From a virus: DNA of 49,330 nucleotides. Within the stretch, counting starts at the first letter, position 1, and every line of letters starts with the position of its first letter. Position numbers and translations under genes: made by a program. Below are positions 313-31,414 of this stretch, piece by piece. The notes below the pieces were generated by a model, which saw nothing but the letters and a program-made list of their open reading frames with translations, made no database searches and had not been told where the DNA came from. The stretch lies in UHGV virus genome UHGV-0139780; one strand, given 5' to 3'.

Positions 313-648
313 ATGGAGGAAAACATGTCGAACGAGATGGCGGGCGTTACAACAGATCAAGTTGAGCGTATTGCCGCAATCGTTGCTCGGGAGGTTGTTG
401 GCAAATTGGGTAAAGAGCTACGTGAAGAAATTGGCCAGGAGGTCAACGATCAGCTGAAAACCTACTTTGGTGATATGACCCCGGCGCAACATAGTATTCA
501 ACACTCCAACCTGGACAAACTCCTTAACCGGTTAGATTCCATCTCAAGTGGGTTCTTTGGCGGCATTGTTTCTAAAATAACGTCGTTCATTATTACCGCA
601 CTGCTTTTGGGGTTAGCCGCGTATGGCGTAAAAAACGGGCTGCAATAA
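313..648 (+). CDS. small membrane protein with single C-terminal TM helix; putative holin
   Basis: 111 aa, hydrophobic C-terminal segment (ITSFIITALLLGLAAYGV); sits immediately upstream of the endolysin-like gene; GGAGGA before an alternative ATG at 325. Confidence 0.35.
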   Translation: MEENMSNEMAGVTTDQVERIAAIVAREVVGKLGKELREEIGQEVNDQLKTYFGDMTPAQHSIQHSNLDKLLNRLDSISSGFFGGIVSKITSFIITALLLGLAAYGVKNGLQ

Positions 649-661
649 CAGGAGATCAAGG

Positions 662-1354
662 ATGAAAACTCCGAGAGGCATTCGTAATAATAACCCCGGT
701 AATCTTGATAAAGGATCACCGTGGCAAGGTCTGGTTGCGAATCCAGACGAACCGCGCTTTTGCACGTTTAAAGACCCTGTTTGGGGGATTCGTGCGCTGG
801 CGGTGACTCTAATTACCTACCACGATAAACGTCGCGCAAAAGACGGCTCAAGTATCGATACCATTCGTGAAGTTATTGAACGCTGGGCACCGCCGAATGA
901 AAACAATACTGACGCCTACATTAATGAGGTGTCTAAAGCCGTTGGTGTAACCGCAGACATGATCATCGATCTGCATGATTACGACATCCTTCGACCTTTG
1001 GTTGAGGCAATCATTCGCCACGAGAATGGTCGAGGTCCACTCAAAACGCTGAACACCTGGTATGCGGCAGAAGTTATTGAGGAAGGTCTGCGTCGAGCTG
1101 GCGTCGTTAAGCCGGTGAAAACCGTGAAGGCTGTTCCTGTAACTAAAGAAACCGCAGGCGCAACTGTTACAGCAGGTATTGGTCTGGCGCAGCTGGCCGA
1201 TGTTATGCCGCAGGTTTCCGCTGCTATGGATAAGGCACAAGGTCATATCTCTAGCGGGGATACAGTACGCATCATCTTCGGTATTGCCACTATTGTTGTG
1301 GCAGGATTCATTGCCTGGTCGCAGGTAAGAAAACATCAGAAAGGGATGGTCTAA
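662..1354 (+). CDS. putative peptidoglycan hydrolase (endolysin-like) with C-terminal transmembrane anchor
   Basis: 230 aa; N-terminal GIRNNNPGNL motif; C-terminal hydrophobic helix (IIFGIATIVVAGFIAW); position between holin-like and spanin-like genes. Confidence 0.4.
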   Translation: MKTPRGIRNNNPGNLDKGSPWQGLVANPDEPRFCTFKDPVWGIRALAVTLITYHDKRRAKDGSSIDTIREVIERWAPPNENNTDAYINEVSKAVGVTADMIIDLHDYDILRPLVEAIIRHENGRGPLKTLNTWYAAEVIEEGLRRAGVVKPVKTVKAVPVTKETAGATVTAGIGLAQLADVMPQVSAAMDKAQGHISSGDTVRIIFGIATIVVAGFIAWSQVRKHQKGMV

Positions 1355-1355
1355 T

Positions 1356-1607
1356 ATGCTAGGCAGCCTGATGACAAAGCTAAAAGTTGCTTTGATTACG
1401 CTGGCTGCCGTTCTTTTCGTTCTGGTCGGCGCTTACACGATGGGCGGAAATGCGGCGCGACGAGCAATGGAAGAGAAGGCAAAACAGGAAGACAGAAAAC
1501 GACTTCAAAACACAGTGGAAGTGGTAAATGAGACGAGCAATAAAATACGTCAGAAAGATGCTTCTGCCATTCATCGTGAGTTGTATGATAAGTGGGTGCG
1601 TCATTAA
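1356..1607 (+). CDS. i-spanin-like protein (N-terminal TM, charged coiled-coil-like remainder)
   Basis: 83 aa with N-terminal TM (LKVALITLAAVLFVLVGAYT); directly follows the endolysin-like gene; overlaps a lipoprotein ORF in another frame. Confidence 0.45.
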   Translation: MLGSLMTKLKVALITLAAVLFVLVGAYTMGGNAARRAMEEKAKQEDRKRLQNTVEVVNETSNKIRQKDASAIHRELYDKWVRH

Positions 1608-1743
1608 ACCACAAACCGCCAGCGTATTGTTCTGCGATGGAGCTGAGCCTATCTATATCAGCAATAATGATGTAATGACCGAAGAAACCGAACGCCAAAT
1701 CCTTTTTCACAATACGATGGGAGAGAGAGTTTGCGGTTGGTGA
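1528..1743 (+). CDS. o-spanin-like outer-membrane lipoprotein (overlapped architecture)
   Basis: 71 aa with lipobox-like ISGC after a hydrophobic leader; starts inside the i-spanin-like ORF in a different frame. Confidence 0.45.
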   Translation: MRRAIKYVRKMLLPFIVSCMISGCVIKPQTASVLFCDGAEPIYISNNDVMTEETERQILFHNTMGERVCGW

Positions 1744-1774
1744 TACGAAGTTCCCCTCATTTGAGGGGAGTACA

Positions 1775-2296
1775 TTATTCTTCGAACAATTTTTCGATAG
1801 ATTTTGTTGGATAGAACAAAGATCGCTCGTTGTTTCCAATCAACTGGATAAAGCCCAGGCTTTTATAAAACGCCTTAGCCTTATCATTCAACGCCTCAAC
1901 GAAGAGTCCATGAATACCAACAGCAAGAGAGGCGTTATACACAACACGCATAGCGTGTGTTACAAGCATTGAGCCAAACCCTTGACTTTGAAGAGGTTTG
2001 TCCAAAGCCAGTCTGCCCAAAGTAACACTTGGCACATTCCGATAAGGCACCTTCTTTTGCTGGCTTCTTGAAGGTAAGGACTCCTTTTCAAAGCAGCTGC
2101 CTGACAAAGTGTAATACCCTAACACTTTGGGTCTGTCTTCTTTAGTGCAAAGCACATAAGCGCGAAGAATTTTTCCCTCATGCTGTCTTTTTAAGTGGTT
2201 GATTAAAAAGGAGTTTAGAGATTCTTCACCGCAATCAAAGCCATTCAAATCATAATCTTTCTCTCCAGAGAAAATTTCTATCTTTATATTATCCAC
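1775..2296 (-). CDS. GNAT-family acetyltransferase toxin (TacT/AtaT-like)
   Basis: 173 aa with GNAT-like core (QSQGFGSMLVTHAM...AKAFYKSLGF); GTG start 7 nt after the stop of an upstream DUF1778-like ORF. Confidence 0.7.
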   Translation of the reverse strand: MDNIKIEIFSGEKDYDLNGFDCGEESLNSFLINHLKRQHEGKILRAYVLCTKEDRPKVLGYYTLSGSCFEKESLPSRSQQKKVPYRNVPSVTLGRLALDKPLQSQGFGSMLVTHAMRVVYNASLAVGIHGLFVEALNDKAKAFYKSLGFIQLIGNNERSLFYPTKSIEKLFEE

Positions 2297-2303
2297 GAGT
2301 AAA

Positions 2304-2573
2304 CTATTCCATGCTTTTCAGACGATCAGCAGCTCGTTTCAGCTTGTCGTTCGGTGCCGGAGGATTGCTTATAGCGTCCATAACCAGATTCCAGGATTCC
2401 TCATTCAGAACCAGTCTACGGTGTTGCTCTATAACTTTCACGGCACGTTCAGATGCACTGCTAACCATAAACTGAGTAATGCTCTGGTTAGACATTGCGG
2501 CAGCTTCCTCGATGATGCTTTTATCGTCATCGGTTAATCTCAAATCGATGCGCTGCTTTTTTAGTGCTGACAT
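2304..2573 (-). CDS. DUF1778-type ribbon-helix-helix antitoxin (TacA-like)
   Basis: about 89 aa from the internal ATG at 2573, which has AGGAGG 5 nt upstream; the track ORF extends to 2612; coupled to the GNAT ORF. Confidence 0.65.
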   Translation of the reverse strand: MSALKKQRIDLRLTDDDKSIIEEAAAMSNQSITQFMVSSASERAVKVIEQHRRLVLNEESWNLVMDAISNPPAPNDKLKRAADRLKSME

Positions 2574-2891
2574 GTATTCCTCCTGATGGCCGTGATGTAG
2601 GAAGGCCATCAATCTCCTCTGTTCAAACTGAGGTTTCGACTCAAAAATTACTTTAAAAGGCTATAGCCCATTACGTGTGCATTATCAAATTGTGTACGGC
2701 ATATCACCGTACTTGTAATATAGAGGTCATTGTTACTTTTTTCAACAGACAAATACAAGCTGTGATTGCCAATTGTTAATCACAACCTACCATTTAACCT
2801 TTACACCGCAGCCGTAGGCATTTAGGCTATATCACATATAAGAAAACAAGTTGTTTCAGACGATAATTATATACGCAAAGGGAACTCTCCA

Positions 2892-3560
2892 ATGACCAAG
2901 ATCTTTGTGGTTGGCGGCACAAAGGGCGGGCCTGGCAAATCCACCGTTGCCCAGCAAATTGCCGTTTGCCTGAAAGTCAAAAAGAAGAAGAAGGTTTATA
3001 TCACTGATATAGATATTCAGCGCACGACAACAAGCTGGTGTGAAGACCGTCGACAGAACGAAGACCTTGAGCTGATTCCTTTTGCATACGTTCAGGATGA
3101 CATCATTAAGCACCTAAAATCACTTCAGGGTAGAGCTGAGTTTGTAGTGGTAGATGCTGGTGGCTTTGACTCCGAAATTCAGCGACAAGCGATGCTGATG
3201 GCTGACGTTATCATTATCCCGCTTCGTCCTAAGCGTCGTGATTTGAAATCTCTGCGTGACATCGATCCTATTATCGACAATGTTCGTAATGTAAACGATA
3301 AAGTGAAGGTCCGCGCGGTCATGAACCAGTGCCCGGCTTTGCCATCACAAGTGTCTCGCATTCTGGCGGCTAAAGAGATTGTCGAGACGTTTGGCATCGA
3401 GTCTGCGCCTGTCAATCTATATAACCGCAACGTCTACGATGATGCGGAAGAGTCTGGTCGTTCTATCTTTGAAATGACCGGTAGCGAGCGCGACAAAAAG
3501 GCGGAAGCCGAGTTTGAAGAATTTGTAGATTATCTGTTGAGTCTGGAGGAAGAAGAATAA
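2892..3560 (+). CDS. parA: ParA-family partition ATPase
   Basis: Deviant Walker A GGTKGGPGKST near the N-terminus; 222 aa; followed by a small basic ORF. Confidence 0.8.
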   Translation: MTKIFVVGGTKGGPGKSTVAQQIAVCLKVKKKKKVYITDIDIQRTTTSWCEDRRQNEDLELIPFAYVQDDIIKHLKSLQGRAEFVVVDAGGFDSEIQRQAMLMADVIIIPLRPKRRDLKSLRDIDPIIDNVRNVNDKVKVRAVMNQCPALPSQVSRILAAKEIVETFGIESAPVNLYNRNVYDDAEESGRSIFEMTGSERDKKAEAEFEEFVDYLLSLEEEE

Positions 3561-3919
3561 TGTCCATGAAAATGGGTGACCTAGCAAAGCGCAAAGAGCC
3601 TGATGCACCGGCTAAGAACACAACTCCTTTGCGCCAACCAGTCAGACCACAGGGACGCCCGACTCGTGGCAAAGAGAAAATTAAAAGCCGCACAATGTCA
3701 CTGGAAGACGAATACTTCGAACTGCTGGAGATGATGAAGTTCATCCCTCGTTTCGAGAAGTTCACCCGTTCTGACGTGATTCGAGCAGCTATTTTCCATC
3801 TGGCAGAGAAGTCACCGCAGGAAATCGAGGACATCGTGAAACTTAACGAGGCGATCACAGCTGCCGACGTTACTATGCGTACCGATGAAATCAAGCGAGA
3901 ACTCATGAAAAAAGGCTGA
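3560..3919 (+). CDS. small centromere-binding partner protein (ParG/RHH-like)
   Basis: 119 aa, basic N-terminal tail, start overlaps the parA stop; 3' end resembles an RHH fold. Confidence 0.5.
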   Translation: MSMKMGDLAKRKEPDAPAKNTTPLRQPVRPQGRPTRGKEKIKSRTMSLEDEYFELLEMMKFIPRFEKFTRSDVIRAAIFHLAEKSPQEIEDIVKLNEAITAADVTMRTDEIKRELMKKG

Positions 3920-3947
3920 CAACTTCCGGTCTGGCAGCTTCAATCAG

Positions 3948-4009
3948 AACCTGTTTCTGTATATAAATAATAAGTAACTTATTAAATATATATATACGGA
4001 AGCAGGTCT
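3948..4009 (+). terminator. large hairpin (16-bp stem, AT-rich loop) plus T-run; copy A of a recurring element
   Basis: cctgtttctgtatata ... tatatacggaagcagg followed by tctttt; a near-identical element lies at 47461-47520. Confidence 0.5.
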
Positions 4010-4114: not shown

Positions 4115-4864
4115 GTGAGCCACATGAGCCAAATCTTTTTCGACACAATCGACAACGACCAGTACGACTTCATGACAGAGTGGAATACCGCTGTTATGGA
4201 CAAGTGGGTTGCTGAAAACATTGGTTTGTCGCGCTGCAAAGACGAGGCTGAACTCTTCTATACGAAGTGGTTTGATTACCGCGACATGCATCCTCTTATG
4301 GCTACCTGTCTGTTTACGGAGGCATACAAACGTCAGTACTCAAATATCATGCTGACGCACGGTCGCGAACACTTTGAAACAGCTCCGTTTACCACCGGGT
4401 TAAAACGCCTGCCTTATCAGGAGTTGTCGACTGCCAATAAAACGTCGCTATGGAAAGCACGCCAGTTTGCTGACCGCTATTGCTGCTCATACGACTACTT
4501 TATCTCCACCGTGCTTTCCGCAGCTGCACGACGTCTGTGGGACAAGCTGCCTCGCCCACAACATTTGTGGCAGCCAGAACTGATTGAGATATTTGAAGAG
4601 AAATTAGCCAGGCGCGCAACAACCCGTCTGGATGACTCTCTGGTTAGCTTTAAGCATATGGGAGACATGCAGTTCAACCCGATCCAGGAAAGCTATTTTG
4701 AGTGGATTCTGGAGCGTTTACGCACCATCCCCCGCAGCAAGCGCATACGCGCAATTTTCTCCGCTATCTGGCTAATGGAAATCGTTCCAGAGCGCCTTAT
4801 TTCCGCCCACTTTCCAGAAGAACTGGAAGAAGCACGGCGGTTTATTGATCCCCTATCTAATTAA
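4115..4864 (+). CDS. hypothetical protein
   Basis: 249-aa ORF immediately upstream of the helicase gene; no motif recognised. Confidence 0.4.
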   Translation: MSHMSQIFFDTIDNDQYDFMTEWNTAVMDKWVAENIGLSRCKDEAELFYTKWFDYRDMHPLMATCLFTEAYKRQYSNIMLTHGREHFETAPFTTGLKRLPYQELSTANKTSLWKARQFADRYCCSYDYFISTVLSAAARRLWDKLPRPQHLWQPELIEIFEEKLARRATTRLDDSLVSFKHMGDMQFNPIQESYFEWILERLRTIPRSKRIRAIFSAIWLMEIVPERLISAHFPEELEEARRFIDPLSN

Positions 4865-8910: not shown

Positions 8911-9376
8911 AAAAGTTGATCGCACTTAAGCATAAGCTGGACGAAATGAAAGCTATGGGAACCAATGCAAAAAAAGAGGCATTGGCCAACATGGATGACT
9001 TCGAGCAAAGCATGGTTTCATTGATGCTCAACCCTTTCATTCGTTTTGGGGTAAAGAAATACAAAGTGACCGGAGTTCCCTGAGTACTGGAAGCCTAAAA
9101 CGCGAGCTAAGTTAGAGCGTTTAGGGTTGGTTGCAAACGTTTCTGAAACGAAGTGTTCGGCCAACTACCAGTTAACTGATAAAGGGAAAGTATTGCTACA
9201 GCAATTAGTAGAATCAGGAGTGTTAAAATGATTCCATACATCTCATTAGCTTTTATGGCGGGCTTCCTTATCGGCTTCGGCATCTGTCGTGACTTAATTA
9301 AGCAGGAACTTAAAACCAAAACACTGTGCATCGGAAAGCGTGTGTATCGAGTAGTTCATGAAACAAAGGTTAGAAA

Positions 9377-10440: not shown

Positions 10441-10515
10441 GATGGTGTAGCTCAGCGGCAGAGCAGTTGGCTGTTAACCAACTGGTCGGTGGTTCGAATC
10501 CACCCACCATCGCCA
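10441..10515 (+). tRNA. tRNA-Asn (anticodon GTT)
   Basis: Cloverleaf by eye: acceptor gatggtg/caccatc, anticodon loop ctGTTaa, T-loop ggttcgaatcc, encoded CCA. Confidence 0.8.
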
Positions 10516-10520
10516 ATTTA

Positions 10521-10608
10521 GGGGAGTTAGTCCGTAGAGGTAGCGGGGTAGACTGTAAATCTACTGTCATTGCGACTCGGATGGTTCGACTCCATCACTC
10601 CCCACCAA
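10521..10608 (+). tRNA. tRNA-Tyr (anticodon GTA), long variable arm
   Basis: Acceptor ggggagt/actcccc, anticodon stem-loop tagac-tGTAaat-ctact, long variable arm, T-loop ggttcgactcc, CCA. Confidence 0.8.
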
Positions 10609-10611
10609 ATT

Positions 10612-10687
10612 GCCGGTTTAGCTCAGTTGGTAGAGCAGTCGCTTTGTAAGCGAATGGCCAGCGGTTCAAGTCCGTTAACCGGCACCA
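10612..10687 (+). tRNA. tRNA-Thr (anticodon TGT)
   Basis: Acceptor gccggtt/aaccggc, D-arm gctcagttggtagagc, anticodon loop ttTGTaa, T-loop ttcaagt, CCA. Confidence 0.65.
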
Positions 10688-10695
10688 CAACAATT

Positions 10696-10782
10696 GGAGA
10701 GTAGGGAGCATGGTGCTCAAACGGTCTTGAAAACCGTCCCATTGCGCAAGCGATGATGGTTCGATTCCATTACTCTCCGCCA
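10696..10782 (+). tRNA. tRNA-Ser (anticodon TGA), long variable arm
   Basis: Acceptor ggagagt/actctcc, anticodon stem-loop acggt-ctTGAaa-accgt, long variable arm, T-loop ggttcgattcc, CCA. Confidence 0.75.
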
Positions 10783-21100: not shown

Positions 21101-21686
21101 CATAGATGCAGTTAAAGCCTCACGTCCGTTTGAGATGAACCCCAAACGTTCGGCTGAGATTAACGTGCTCATGACACGGATGGCGGCTGAAATGAGCTTA
21201 GGTGATGAACTAATCCGCCCCAGCATTGGTATTAAGCCGAAAATCATGATCATTCTGGACAATGCAAACGGTAATGATGCTCGAACCGGTTACTTCATGG
21301 AGAACGGATACGACGATTTTAAGGCCAAGCTGTTGACGGCTGGAGATCTGCGCATGGGCGATATCTATGTCACAGGCGTTTGCAAAAAGATGAAAGACAA
21401 AGAAAAGGACTACACCAAAGACGAGATCGGCCAGTTCACCGACTTTATGCGTGAAGAGATCAATCTGGTGCGTCCGACCTATGTGCTGACGTGTGGCAGC
21501 CGGGCAACGGCATTGTTTAACAACAAAAACAAGCCATCCGATTTGGTCGGCAGGAAGGAGTATCTTCCAGACCTTGACGTTACTGTCTTTTACGGGTTTA
21601 ACCCCAACATTCTTTACTTCAGACCTGAAGAGGGGGAACGACTAGAAGCGATATTAGCCGACGTAGCAGAAACTATTAAGACGTGA
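18168..21686 (+). CDS. dnaE: DNA polymerase III alpha subunit (DnaE-type, PHP domain) with C-terminal extension
   Basis: Recalled DnaE blocks: GFCGYFLMV, GIPVGPGRGSSAGSLVAWCIGIT, LLFERFINPER, PDADLDF. Confidence 0.85.
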   Translation: MKALMVRTDFSLGESALKAENAVKIAREAGYTAVISADSMNIASVIPLQRAAGDDMAVICGVKLNIVDDPTYEHRAKLAKESMGCMESLERGRNYSFTALIKNEQGYRDICELMTAANTREQFYFVPRLSLEQLVSTYAKGNIILLTSDIGSVFQRNDFAKIISTLITAGGKDNFYSVIYPHPTPFYDQINVRAMKVASALKIEPVAFYPAYYESIDDADIKDIAHMVTNNIKIDQPHRLRIPHQRDNAVNGRRHLLEALKAFSVRMDVPVTAAMASTTQDTIIDACTWRWHELPPALPKMADDEPATLMKLAVAGLRKRLTTKEFGYTPPASENRVYVERLKYEMDTLTRLGFCGYFLMVRDLMNHSRETGIPVGPGRGSSAGSLVAWCIGITNVDPIRHGLLFERFINPERLDLPDADLDFSQARRHEVIEYLNERYGEDYVAGIPNFTYLGAASALRDTARIYGVESADMAVSKELKNVEDDSLPLEELREQLASLDKYATKYPDAFNAACKLQSLMRGFGRHAAGMIVAGVPLTERTPVERRGDARCIAFDKRYCEAMGLIKLDVLGLATLDLLDSAKRYIKENTGEDINLDAISLEDRKVLDGFAAGYTQGVFQLESGPMRKLLKDLGGGIEPMSFKTVVATTALFRPGPIQSGMLDDYVSVAKGFMTPESLHPVLDELTAETNGVILYQEQTMNATRLLAGFTMAEADGVRSAIGKKNMEKMKSMGEKFIVQAQAGWIDVELEDGTTQRIHRAEHFKCEDGTLKTVEEALEHGAKLPINAVRVTASHPGLSEMKAKEIWTAFEKNGAYQFNKSHSVAYSLISYQSMWLKTHYPAEFFAAALTILGEDKHQGLVKDALTYGIRVLPPDVNVSSNRIEIRTLEDGSQVLYAPFSAVKGCSENGCQAIMRAREKVGGKFESLAQFEEAVEKRSCNSRVRESLQKVGAFASIEPGSLPATDPERLRDQAELMGNLVIDAVKASRPFEMNPKRSAEINVLMTRMAAEMSLGDELIRPSIGIKPKIMIILDNANGNDARTGYFMENGYDDFKAKLLTAGDLRMGDIYVTGVCKKMKDKEKDYTKDEIGQFTDFMREEINLVRPTYVLTCGSRATALFNNKNKPSDLVGRKEYLPDLDVTVFYGFNPNILYFRPEEGERLEAILADVAETIKT
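21240..21683 (+). other. C-terminal domain of DnaE resembling a degenerate family-4 uracil-DNA glycosylase fold
   Basis: Last 148 aa align by eye to UDG4 block order, with catalytic motifs altered (DNANG in place of GEAPG; NPN in place of HPS). Confidence 0.35.
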
Positions 21687-21693
21687 TCCAATA

Positions 21694-21719
21694 AACATGG
21701 CCATAAAGGCCATGTTTTC
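21694..21719 (+). terminator. hairpin after dnaE (terminator-like, short T-run)
   Basis: aacatggcc ataaa ggccatgtt then ttcc; overlaps the first codons of the track ORF 21697. Confidence 0.45.
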
Positions 21720-21789
21720 CCTTATCCCCTCACATCCCCCTATCTTCAAGCTCATTGCTTCATCATCACAATGCTATAATAAATACAAA

Positions 21790-22245
21790 ATGATAAGTGA
21801 TAAGGAAATGCTCATGTTCGCCGATATTTACGAGAAAATAATGTCTGATCTCGAGTTTGACCGAGACAATCTGGAAGAAGTCTGGCGTAGACAACCCCGC
21901 CTTTTAATGGAGTATGGCTCAAAACTCGCTCATGCAGAAAGAAGTGTCGCAGAGGCAAAACTTAACCTTGAAGCTGTTGAAGCCAAGCTATACGACACAG
22001 AGCGTAAGAACTTGAGTATGAACGGCATTAAGTTCAATGAGTCTGTACTGGACGCTAAGGTTAAAACAAACCCACAGTATCTGTCTAAACGGCAGAAGTT
22101 GGATGAAGCACGGCACATCGCAGACATATACAAACATGCTGTCGCCGCCTTTTCGCATCGCCGAGACATGATCGTTCAGGCGTCGAAGATGGCCATCGTT
22201 GAGTTAGATCGATTAGGCTCTGAACGCTTTATTACTCCCCGCTGA
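21790..22245 (+). CDS. hypothetical protein (possibly UvsY-like recombination mediator; weak)
   Basis: Start moved to ATG at 21790, downstream of the hairpin and a TATAAT-like box; about 151 aa, mostly helical and charged. Confidence 0.35.
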   Translation: MISDKEMLMFADIYEKIMSDLEFDRDNLEEVWRRQPRLLMEYGSKLAHAERSVAEAKLNLEAVEAKLYDTERKNLSMNGIKFNESVLDAKVKTNPQYLSKRQKLDEARHIADIYKHAVAAFSHRRDMIVQASKMAIVELDRLGSERFITPR

Positions 22246-29579: not shown

Positions 29580-29627
29580 ATGCAAACTGACTGCGGCTCG
29601 TTCCGCAGTCATATTTCATTGTCGTCA

Positions 29628-30159
29628 CCGCTGACAGCATACACAATCAATTACCGCTGATAGCATATCGAGAGTTTATCTCACCGCTCACAGCATACTT
29701 TACTCGATTTTTTACCGCTGACAGCATACTTAAGACATTGCATGAATAATGTGTACCGGTATGGGTATAACCAGAACAAAATTACCGCTGGCAGCATACG
29801 AAGGTCTGACATATACCATTAATTACCGCTGATAGCATATCCAAACAAAAATTCCTCAATAAAACACCGCTGACAGCATACGTTCTATCAGGGAGCAGCA
29901 GGCAATAAATGCCTTTCACTACAAGCAATCAGCGCAATGGCAATAGAATGTTAGTGAGCGCAAACCTATATGGAATGCACTCTTCGAGGTTAGTAACCAC
30001 TGGGTAGGTATGACAGAGCATTGAGTGGTGATAGATGTTTTACCGCTCACAGCATACGTTTATCTCACTATACCGCTAGTAGCATATCTCTAACCGTTCA
30101 CAGCATACTTTTCAGAAAAATAGCCGCTGATAGCATACATTTCACCGCTGACAGCATAT
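29628..30159 (+). repeat. iteron array (12 direct repeats, consensus CCGCTGACAGCATAC) downstream of repA; incA-like
   Basis: Copies start at 29628, 29654, 29684, 29715, 29785, 29826, 29867, 30043, 30073, 30094, 30124, 30145; same orientation; irregular spacing. Confidence 0.75.
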
Positions 30160-31253
30160 CAAAGCAGTTTGAGACTATTGGAAAGGATCTCAATCATCTT
30201 GATATTTTCAGGCGTCAAATTCTGCGAAAGTTCGGTTATCTTGTTGATAATGTTCTGTTTGGCATCAATTTCCCCAGCTTTCTCATCTGGTTTTTTGGGT
30301 TCGATGTCTTCAGGTTTTGGCGGTGCGACTTTGAGTTTTGGATTGCGGCTGTGAATCTGGATATAGATCGACCGCCCTCGCTTAATCTCGCTGTATTCGA
30401 GATAGCCCAAATCTTGAAGAACTTTTAAGCCGTTACGTATAGTCTGATTCTGCGAGCTGACATTCCTGCTACTCAAATTGAGTCGCGCACGCAATCGAGC
30501 AAGCGATACCGGCGCAGGCTTGGTTGGAAGACTTTCGATGAAGGTGTACAGAGCCTGTGCTGTTTCTTTGCGTGGTAGCTTATTGATAACCTTTAACTGC
30601 AAAAGAACCTTATGGTCAAAGCGATATAGTTCGGCCAGCTTCGGTTCTGCATAGAATACCACCGTATCTTTCTGCTCGTTGTAGTCCACGCTATTGATGA
30701 GGTGCACCATCAGAAGCGAGATCTTGTTAGAACCGTCGACATTCTTTTCTTCATACGTTCTCTGGAAAGACAGAGTGGTACGCATAATCTTCAAAAGACT
30801 GTTTGTAAGCCGGTCGCGGAGTGTTTTGCGGATCTGTGACGATGGATAGCCACAAAACTTCGCAAATTTCGTGATGCTTAACTCGACACGACCGTTAGGT
30901 TCGCCGTATTCTGCCAGCGAACGCACGACGCCCACCCACGTTTTGAAATCATGATCCATGTCGAGACGAGGACCGGTTATCTTGATATCGGAATAGCCTT
31001 CAGAACGGGCTACTTCGAGCTGAACAAGCTCCTTTGAAGCATCGATCTCATTTGGCTTGTTACGCTTGCTGTATTTTGTCCCCTTGAGCGTGGGCACGAA
31101 CAACCCCAGCCGCATCAACGCAATTGGTTGGACTGTATTGTTGCTATTAGGGACAAGTTCCCCTGTGTACAATTCAAGGGAACCTTCTTCAAAGTTGTCG
31201 AGATTATCTTCTACTTCTTTGTTATTTTTACCTTTTTTATTTTTTGTGGACAT
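30159..31253 (-). CDS. repA: iteron-binding replication initiator (RepA-like)
   Basis: Large basic ORF flanked on both sides by iterons; start set to the internal ATG at 31253 (MSTKNKK...) because the track extension overlaps the upstream iterons. Confidence 0.6.
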   Translation of the reverse strand: MSTKNKKGKNNKEVEDNLDNFEEGSLELYTGELVPNSNNTVQPIALMRLGLFVPTLKGTKYSKRNKPNEIDASKELVQLEVARSEGYSDIKITGPRLDMDHDFKTWVGVVRSLAEYGEPNGRVELSITKFAKFCGYPSSQIRKTLRDRLTNSLLKIMRTTLSFQRTYEEKNVDGSNKISLLMVHLINSVDYNEQKDTVVFYAEPKLAELYRFDHKVLLQLKVINKLPRKETAQALYTFIESLPTKPAPVSLARLRARLNLSSRNVSSQNQTIRNGLKVLQDLGYLEYSEIKRGRSIYIQIHSRNPKLKVAPPKPEDIEPKKPDEKAGEIDAKQNIINKITELSQNLTPENIKMIEILSNSLKLL

Positions 31254-31274
31254 GTGGACACCTTTGTCATTCAA

Positions 31275-31375
31275 CCGCTGACAGCATACTTGATTTGCCG
31301 CTGGCAGCATACCAAAAACAGTTGGCAGCATACGGCGAACCGTTGACAGACTATCAATTACCGCTGGCAGCATAC
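31275..31375 (+). repeat. iteron cluster upstream of repA (3 full and 2 partial copies); incC/origin-like
   Basis: ccgctgacagcatac at 31275, ccgctggcagcatac at 31298 and 31361; partial copies at 31322 and 31339. Confidence 0.7.
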
Positions 31376-31414
31376 ATGAACATGACTTCAGACCAGTCGT
31401 GGCGCGGCTTACAG

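Follow-up and report, generated by a model that had tools for sequence, protein, structure and literature searches.

A 49,330-nt stretch of DNA (virus genome UHGV-0139780; the whole stretch is called the window hereafter) carries on its minus strand a two-gene operon that, judging from protein similarity and gene layout, almost certainly encodes a type II toxin-antitoxin (TA) system; within the GNAT/DUF1778 family, it belongs to the AtaRT/KacAT branch ('clade A'). The window was collinear with the SSU5-like phage-plasmids, namely Cyrano (= pLF82), CMS-2020a, PhiR41_1, SSU5, and Klebsiella relatives, which bears out the view in a first-pass annotation of this DNA that the pair is carried on a phage-plasmid. 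We propose that the operon is a functional TA cassette that maintains the plasmid state of this SSU5-like element by post-segregational killing (PSK), and we give this account as a whole a probability of roughly 0.65. The operon and its control sites are listed below; all positions are those of the window.

1775-2296, minus strand: GNAT toxin gene of the AtaT/KacT clade (173 aa, GTG start)
2297-2303, minus strand: 7-nt intergenic spacer TTTACTC, running from the end of the antitoxin gene to the GTG of the toxin gene; no Shine-Dalgarno sequence is evident
2304-2573, minus strand: antitoxin gene of the DUF1778/TacA family, encoding a ribbon-helix-helix (RHH) protein (89 aa, ATG start, TAG stop)
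2579-2584, minus strand: Shine-Dalgarno sequence AGGAGG, 5 nt ahead of the antitoxin ATG
2584-2611, minus strand: 8-bp inverted repeat TGATGGCC-N12-GGCCATCA in the 5' untranslated region (UTR), adjoining the Shine-Dalgarno sequence; a possible RNA hairpin
2694-2712, both strands: predicted operator palindrome GTACGGT-gatat-GCCGTAC, directly downstream of the -10 hexamer
2717-2745, minus strand: predicted sigma-70-like promoter of the TA operon (-35 TTGAAA at 2740-2745, 17-nt spacer, -10 TATATT at 2717-2722)

The first-pass annotation had described a tightly coupled minus-strand pair, 89 aa followed by 173 aa at a distance of 7 nt, with a strong ribosome-binding site ahead of the first gene. 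The coordinates, the spacer, and the position of the AGGAGG sequence all agreed with that description. It had also likened the pair to TacAT/AtaRT-type modules, and a profile search for GNAT toxin and DUF1778 families, which it had proposed as a check, upheld the likeness: the pair fell in the AtaRT/KacAT branch, with operon layout, operator, and catalytic residues conserved.

The 173-aa protein scored above the gathering threshold for the GNAT Pfam models PF00583 and PF13508. Its best matches among PDB sequences were AtaT and KacT (E = 3e-77 to 7e-73); taken by structure, the matches to AtaT of Escherichia coli O157:H7 (6GTS, 6AJM, and 7CHD) were at about 1e-77 and those to KacT of Klebsiella pneumoniae (5XUN and 5ZGN) at about 1e-73. 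Global identity to AtaT was 67%, with an ungapped alignment over residues 1-171. AtaT and KacT gave bit scores of 248-262, against no more than 79 for the remaining matched solved GNAT chains and 45 for Salmonella TacT (5FVJ). Since these other chains stayed at or below 79 bits compared with about 260, we placed the toxin in the AtaT/KacT branch; by the same scores, its closest relatives assign it to clade A (AtaT, KacT, and AcaT), a clade of relaxed specificity. Ovchinnikov and colleagues reported that clade A enzymes acetylate Gly-tRNA and tRNAs charged with hydrophobic residues (PMC9177977).

The residues of AtaT that are known to matter were largely retained. The acetyl-CoA motif QSQGFG lies at residues 103-108 and includes G108, Y144 lies within FYKSLGF, and both residues align with G108 and Y144 of AtaT. 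Eighteen AtaT residues have proven importance from mutagenesis or structure (PMC7595197), and the toxin was identical at 13 of them, including Y144, G108, Y85, R95, L27, F30, H34, R37, and K81/K82. The five changes were A26S, R40E, R71K, K77R, and K79Q, among which R40E, K79Q, and A26S fall on the surface that binds the tRNA and the aminoacyl group.

The antitoxin matched Pfam PF08681 (TacA1/DUF1778) with an E-value of 5.7e-26 over profile positions 1-79 of 80. Among PDB sequences it matched KacA (E = 6.6e-42) and AtaR (E = 1.3e-40), with global identities of 80.5% and 76%, respectively, which makes KacA the nearest solved antitoxin. R8, D10, and R12 of KacA touch operator bases (PMC6698736), and all three residues were kept in the window antitoxin. 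A longer alternative frame starting from TTG would extend to position 2612; we took the ATG to be the true start, because AtaR and KacA open at the equivalent MSA/MPA.

These matches also bear on whether the GNAT protein could instead be an ordinary, non-toxic acetyltransferase, RimI-like for example, that happens to lie beside an unrelated small regulator. An NCBIfam RimI model did match the toxin weakly (E = 1e-5, far under the cutoff), and one JGI record in a cluster look-up labels a 173-aa GNAT member 'RimI-like'. Set against these are the full-length 67% identity to AtaT, the E-values of about 1e-77 to solved toxins, and a cognate DUF1778 partner, operator, and operon layout that are likewise conserved. 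We regard this explanation as scarcely credible.

The operon had the antitoxin-first, short-spaced bicistronic arrangement that is characteristic of the family, with one promoter-like site upstream and a hairpin downstream. The predicted promoter matched the consensus at 10 of 12 positions, and both hexamers were invariant in eight aligned phage-plasmid alleles. The half-sites of the operator were likewise invariant across the eight alleles while its five spacer bases varied, a pattern to be expected of a protein-binding operator. The same half-sites recur elsewhere: the chromosomal ataRT promoter of O157 Sakai holds GTACGGT-gacat-ACCGTAC (L006 1459-1477), and a paralogue on a RepB plasmid carries GTACGGT-N6-CCGTAC. 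The palindrome is therefore a predicted operator of the kind through which modules of this family would regulate themselves.

The short spacer and its lack of a Shine-Dalgarno sequence suggest that the two genes are translationally coupled and that the toxin is translated at a low level. The toxin genes of all 12 phage-plasmid alleles started with GTG and had no Shine-Dalgarno sequence, whereas AtaT and the RepB-plasmid paralogue start with ATG; from these two features, toxin output should stay low and coupled to translation of the antitoxin. The operator lies about 120 nt from the antitoxin ATG, which implies a long 5' UTR leader. Within this leader, the arms of the inverted repeat at 2584-2611 were near-invariant in the eight alleles; the single variant, C to T, would retain a G-U pair, and there were no compensatory changes. 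We considered a structured, riboswitch-like leader and rejected it, as the fold of 2560-2712 (minus strand) was not significantly more stable than those of shuffled sequences (z = -1.61). An Rfam search of the leader region gave no match.

On the basis of the related systems, the module would work as follows. A toxin dimer would acetylate the alpha-amine of charged tRNAs and thereby halt translation (PMC7595197, PMC9177977); a clade A enzyme would be expected to act on Gly-tRNA and on tRNAs charged with hydrophobic or aromatic residues, initiator Met-tRNA among them. The C-terminal half of the antitoxin would wrap the toxin and block both acetyl-CoA binding and dimerization. A T-A2-A2-T hexamer would bind GTACGGT-N5-GCCGTAC, which overlaps the transcription start, through its RHH domains, and would repress the operon with conditional cooperativity (PMC6698736). 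The GTG start and the missing Shine-Dalgarno sequence would hold toxin output under antitoxin output. With the operon presumably on in the plasmid (lysogenic) state, loss of the element or of the cassette would deprive the cell of its presumably protease-labile antitoxin and lead to arrest, that is, to PSK, which would complement the adjacent ParA system.

Among the closest known systems, AtaR-AtaT of E. coli O157:H7 (PDB 6AJM, 6GTS, 6GTP, and 7CHD) resembles the window pair in its antitoxin-first order (with a spacer of 6 nt versus 7 nt here), in protein sequence (67% for the toxin and 76% for the antitoxin, with Y144 and G108 kept), and in its half-sites, GTACGGT and (A/G)CCGTAC. However, ataRT is chromosomal, between livK and panM, whereas the window pair is plasmid- and phage-borne; AtaT starts with ATG rather than GTG; and the operator lies about 30-45 nt from the antitoxin ATG in ataRT, compared with about 120 nt and a conserved Shine-Dalgarno hairpin here. 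KacA-KacT of K. pneumoniae (5XUN and 5ZGN; toxin E = 7e-73) shares the operator contacts made by R8, D10, and R12, but KacAT is a chromosomal locus in a different genus. In KacAT, the T-A2-A2-T hexamer sits on a palindrome spanning the transcription start and acts with conditional cooperativity (PMC6698736).

Both genes were intact in 12 of 12 alleles, and the mean dN/dS (ratio of nonsynonymous to synonymous substitution rates) over these alleles was 0.07 for the toxin and 0.03 for the antitoxin; both genes are thus under strong purifying selection. Comparison of the window with Cyrano gave a synonymous divergence (dS) of 0.58 for the toxin gene and 0.055 for the antitoxin gene, and the backbone showed 0-4 mismatches per 100 nt. 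Alleles L008 and L009 were mosaic inside the toxin gene, and the antitoxin protein was identical in most alleles. Divergence is thus concentrated in the toxin gene, parts of which have been exchanged by recombination with older alleles, whereas one and the same antitoxin protein has been kept. The exact antitoxin protein was present on at least 1,000 contigs and the exact toxin protein on two contigs only. The window toxin allele is rare: no plasmid in PLSDB exceeded 94.3% nucleotide identity, and the closest overall was a plasmid of an E. coli prawn isolate. In AtaT, helix alpha-3 reads the acceptor stem of the tRNA; the toxin residues that varied included positions 73, 77, and 79 of this helix, a variation that is at most suggestive of selection on tRNA recognition.

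In PLSDB, 598 plasmids matched the backbone upstream of parA and 143-144 had the cassette (140 from Escherichia, three from Shigella, and one from Enterobacter); among these PLSDB relatives, no Klebsiella or Salmonella element with the cassette was seen. In 5,426 complete E. coli genomes, the backbone probe was found in 254 and the full cassette in 152 (about 60%), and a megablast search of the set returned 257 of 257 places on plasmids and none on a chromosome. Large IncY/IncFIB/IncHI1B plasmids and a 64-kb derivative had kept both the cassette and parA; in those plasmids, insertion sequence elements border or break the surrounding phage-derived block.

The nearest published copy is that of Cyrano, in which CYRAN_26/27 form the same cassette in the same slot, with an antitoxin 100% and a toxin 93.6% identical to those of the window. 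The Cyrano toxin was annotated as a 'KacT acetyltransferase-type toxin' and reported as a moron expressed in lysogeny; in the lysogen, the toxin and the antitoxin were transcribed at 35 and 60 times the local background, respectively, and lysogens also yield virions (PMC9928086). RefSeq names the two proteins 'GNAT family N-acetyltransferase' and 'type II toxin-antitoxin system TacA family antitoxin', and one record lists the toxin as ataT. Because hundreds of public records annotate the same module and the Cyrano copy is published, we count the pair as already known: it is an annotated, literature-mentioned member of a well-characterized TA family in an expected place. For the most part, our results leave current understanding unchanged, this being a well-understood family in an element where such modules are expected. 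The cassette does show where the maintenance region lies in this group of Escherichia phage-plasmids, which is clinically widespread.

The first-pass annotation had named plasmid addiction, abortive infection, and control of the lytic switch as roles between which the sequence does not decide. Maintenance of the plasmid state by PSK is, in our analysis, the most likely biological role, at slightly better than even odds. Addiction modules would be expected to reside on low-copy extrachromosomal elements and to be active in the plasmid state, and the plasmid-only places and the Cyrano transcription data correspond to this. On circumstantial grounds, we favor maintenance because the operon adjoins and diverges from parA and is expressed in lysogeny in Cyrano, because it is exclusively plasmid-borne in the E. 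coli set and is retained with parA in rearranged plasmids, and because GmvA-GmvT provides a precedent within the family. The latter, likened here by family and description, is also a type II GNAT/DUF1778 TA system on a low-copy plasmid; it stabilizes Shigella pINV in a Lon-dependent manner (PMC6519299). GmvT belongs to clade D and is specific for Gly-tRNA, and is thus not a clade A enzyme (PMC9177977). The classic phage-plasmid addiction module is phd-doc of P1, which has the role proposed here and is autoregulated by conditional cooperativity (PMC7969092, PMC6698736), but its proteins are of unrelated families (the toxin is a Fic kinase) and its target is another one.

Several points weigh against maintenance. 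Our literature search found no experiment on any phage-plasmid allele, and toxicity, targets, and stabilization are extrapolated. Cyrano has ParA and is present at about 5.5 copies per cell (PMC9928086), so the element may seldom be lost and PSK may bring little benefit. About 40% of the detected E. coli relatives and all Klebsiella and Salmonella relatives seen are without the cassette, which is therefore dispensable for the element. The five altered tRNA-contact positions mean that the specificity of the toxin may differ from that of AtaT. Moreover, the slot on the other side of the partition genes holds anti-phage candidates in relatives, which would fit a role in conflict equally well.

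A further point concerns the chromosomal relative. At about 65% nucleotide identity, ataRT was present in about 30% of complete E. coli genomes; with its identical half-sites and 76% identical antitoxin, cross-neutralization could blunt addiction. For the same reasons, cross-repression or cross-neutralization (anti-addiction) between the chromosomal and phage-plasmid copies is plausible, and the pair is a natural test case for whether a phage-plasmid can be countered by chromosomal ataRT in the role of an anti-addiction locus. The combined counts were 1,627 chromosomal and 301 plasmid places in 1,855 genomes. Avoidance between ataRT and the plasmid module was considered and set aside: at most about 73 genomes held both, versus about 90 by chance, but these are summary counts without correction for phylogeny and are not interpretable.

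Comparison with relatives lacking the pair defined its borders. Homology to the TA-less elements SSU5 and PhiR41_1 ended at the Rz1 stop (at approximately 1725-1743) and restarted at 2785, 107 bp before parA; from these clean breakpoints, the module is a 1.04-kb cassette. The G+C content of the cassette was 0.39-0.44, compared with 0.47-0.51 in most adjacent genes. The cassette and its surroundings are as follows.

313-648, plus strand: holin-like gene, on the lysis side of the cassette
662-1354, plus strand: endolysin gene (supported by PHROGs)
1356-1607, plus strand: Rz gene (supported by PHROGs)
1528-1743, plus strand: Rz1 (o-spanin) gene (supported by PHROGs), convergent with the toxin gene
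1744-2784, minus strand: entire cargo cassette (slot 1), from the hairpin through the toxin and antitoxin genes to the 5' UTR, the operator, and the promoter
1750-1771, both strands: G+C-rich hairpin between the convergent Rz1 and toxin genes (9-bp stem, 4-nt loop)
2761-2784, both strands: imperfect palindrome of 24 bp, TGTGATTGCCAATTGTTAATCACA, lying at the right border of the cassette
2785-2891, plus strand: backbone segment between the cassette and parA (upstream of the latter), conserved throughout the SSU5-like relatives
2892-3560, plus strand: parA, a small Walker-type partition ATPase (222 aa; Pfam MipZ/AAA_31/CbiA; phrog_164, ParA-like)
3560-3919, plus strand: 119-aa open reading frame (ORF), the presumed centromere-binding partner ('parG-like'), overlapping the parA stop (phrog_5111)
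3920-3948, no strand assigned: second cargo slot, empty here, after the 119-aa ORF and before a 249-aa ORF at 4115

Clean borders and presence/absence polymorphism are also what one would see if the cassette were purely selfish, in the sense that its deletion is lethal and so secures its own retention in slot 1, and that it spreads by homologous recombination between related elements without net benefit to the phage-plasmid or its host. The G+C content under that of most neighbors, the mosaic recombination within the toxin gene (dS of 0.58 against 0.055 in the antitoxin), and the restriction of the cassette to Escherichia/Shigella elements all fit this explanation. It makes no prediction at the sequence level by which it could be separated from PSK. 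However, the module stayed linked to parA even in rearranged plasmids, and its prevalence of about 60% in the detected E. coli relatives suggests that it is at least not costly. We consider a purely selfish cassette rather unlikely.

SSU5-like phage-plasmids thus have a swappable cargo slot on each side of their partition locus. In SSU5 (L002 2797-3953, SSU5_031/032) and PhiR41_1 (L003 2770-3945), slot 1 holds a plus-strand gene pair instead of the TA operon. This pair consists of phrog_2594 and phrog_3307 (132-140 aa and 233-258 aa) and ends in its own terminator. Searches of Pfam, NCBIfam, PADLOC, and PDB sequences with its proteins were uninformative; given that it sits where other elements have the TA operon, the pair might be an addiction or conflict module that has gone unrecognized. 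Slot 2 measures 0.8-1.9 kb in relatives (L001 5425-6236, L003 5132-6070, L002 5133-7047, and L005 7175-8410). Its PADLOC candidates were PDC-S31 (DUF2971; E = 3e-41), present in Cyrano and SSU5, and PD-T4-3 (GIY-YIG; E = 2e-23), present in PhiR41_1, while slot 2 of S87 encodes a 352-aa protein without an assigned function. The two precise slots around parA could be mined for addiction and defense genes.

The slots raise another explanation, in which the pair is a module against phages or competitors: infection or a rival phage-plasmid would shut off host transcription or degrade the antitoxin, the freed toxin would abort the infection, and plasmid stabilization would be a by-product. The cassette does fill one of two swappable slots flanking parA and the 119-aa ORF, slot 2 of relatives carries the defense candidates PDC-S31 and PD-T4-3, and the Cyrano operon is expressed in lysogeny as a moron; in addition, tRNA-directed toxins are established effectors of phage defense (PMC12409363, PMC11559606). 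However, neither protein matched a PADLOC-DB v2 defense model at E <= 0.01, a weak negative given that this library is not aimed at generic TA modules. Our literature search found no GNAT/DUF1778 pair reported to protect against phage. The association with defense genes, moreover, concerns slot 2 rather than slot 1, where the alternative cargo has no known function. We therefore think an anti-phage role unlikely; if true, a role in phage defense or in competition between phage-plasmids would be the first for an aminoacyl-tRNA acetyltransferase found in our literature search.

More speculatively, the cassette and the second slot around the partition genes might together form a small conflict island, with the toxin serving in warfare between elements, either by abortive infection against other phages or by killing any cell whose resident phage-plasmid is displaced by an incompatible rival. 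If so, selection on the tRNA target range or on escape from phage countermeasures would lie behind the repeated exchange of toxin alleles next to an unchanging antitoxin and behind the variation at tRNA-contact positions 73, 77, and 79 of helix alpha-3. We hold this for quite unlikely.

The first-pass annotation had placed the pair between a lysis cassette and parA/parG. The lysis genes and parA stood up to comparison; the label 'parG' is putative, as the 119-aa ORF was without a Pfam or PDB match. On the lysis side, the hairpin at 1750-1771 resembles a terminator for the plus-strand lysis operon and has no U-tract on the minus strand. Stretches holding it folded at about -17 kcal/mol on the plus strand (1744-1790) and about -16 kcal/mol on the minus strand (1735-1790), and the hairpin was also present in the Cyrano and S87 alleles.

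The convergence of the lysis cassette and the TA operon, parted only by this hairpin with its poor U-tract, would allow control of the lytic program. Late read-through of the lysis operon past 1750-1771 would run antisense to the TA genes, so that the antitoxin falls and the toxin, released late, shuts off host translation or times lysis. Yet SSU5, PhiR41_1, and all Klebsiella relatives lack the cassette and go through their full life cycle, Cyrano carries it and still makes virions, and a global block of translation would hurt the late protein synthesis of the element itself. With many relatives lacking the cassette and Cyrano yielding virions with it, such control is very unlikely.

At the right edge of the cassette, the 24-bp palindrome was considered as a regulatory site or a recombination scar and rejected, since it was not conserved in the Cyrano, S87, or pD228 alleles; its absence from other alleles indicates that it is probably not functional. 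Its TGTGA...TCACA arms recall a CRP site, but 14 nt lie between them, whereas CRP consensus sites have a 6-nt spacer.

The parA product matched the NCBIfam model NF041546 (ParA_partition) at E = 1.9e-33, below the cutoff. The 119-aa ORF had no meaningful match in Pfam, NCBIfam, or PDB sequences, and the label 'RelE/ParE putative toxin' given to its Cyrano counterpart, CYRAN_29, found no support in any of these three sources. An AlphaFold2 (AF2) single-sequence model of the ORF, with a mean confidence (pLDDT) of 67, showed a disordered basic N-terminus and helices at 48-59, 70-84, and 86-118; this low-confidence model is compatible with an RHH or other small centromere-binding protein. Just past the partition genes, at 3949-4007, lies an AT-rich 29-nt inverted repeat whose arms are 79% complementary and 1 nt apart. 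It stands at the start of the backbone that resumes past slot 2 and may serve as a terminator, as part of a promoter, or as a site resembling a centromere; repeats typical of a centromere were not identified.

Elsewhere, the window differed from Cyrano (L016) in several segments. It was without the HicAB pair (2.0 kb), a DNA ligase segment (1.4 kb), CYRAN_43, and the slot-2 PDC-S31 gene. The corresponding window positions, for the missing segments and the RepA region, are 21653-21834, 9064-9068, and 29597-31386. The segment around the RepA gene (30159-31373, minus strand) was non-homologous to Cyrano and represents a different replication-initiator allele. With HicAB missing, the AtaRT-like pair is the only recognized TA system in these 49 kb.

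The window also contains a cluster of four tRNA genes at 10441-10782 on the plus strand (Asn-GTT, Tyr-GTA, Thr-TGT, and Ser-TGA, the last below the Rfam gathering score). In the acceptor stem of its tRNA-Tyr, A5-U68 breaks the G-C run at 4-6:67-69, which is the AtaT determinant. A link between the cluster and the toxin was considered and dropped for want of a consistent association, because Cyrano has the TA pair but not tRNA-Tyr. Comparable Asn/Thr/Ser tRNA clusters occur in the P1-like phages P7 and D6.

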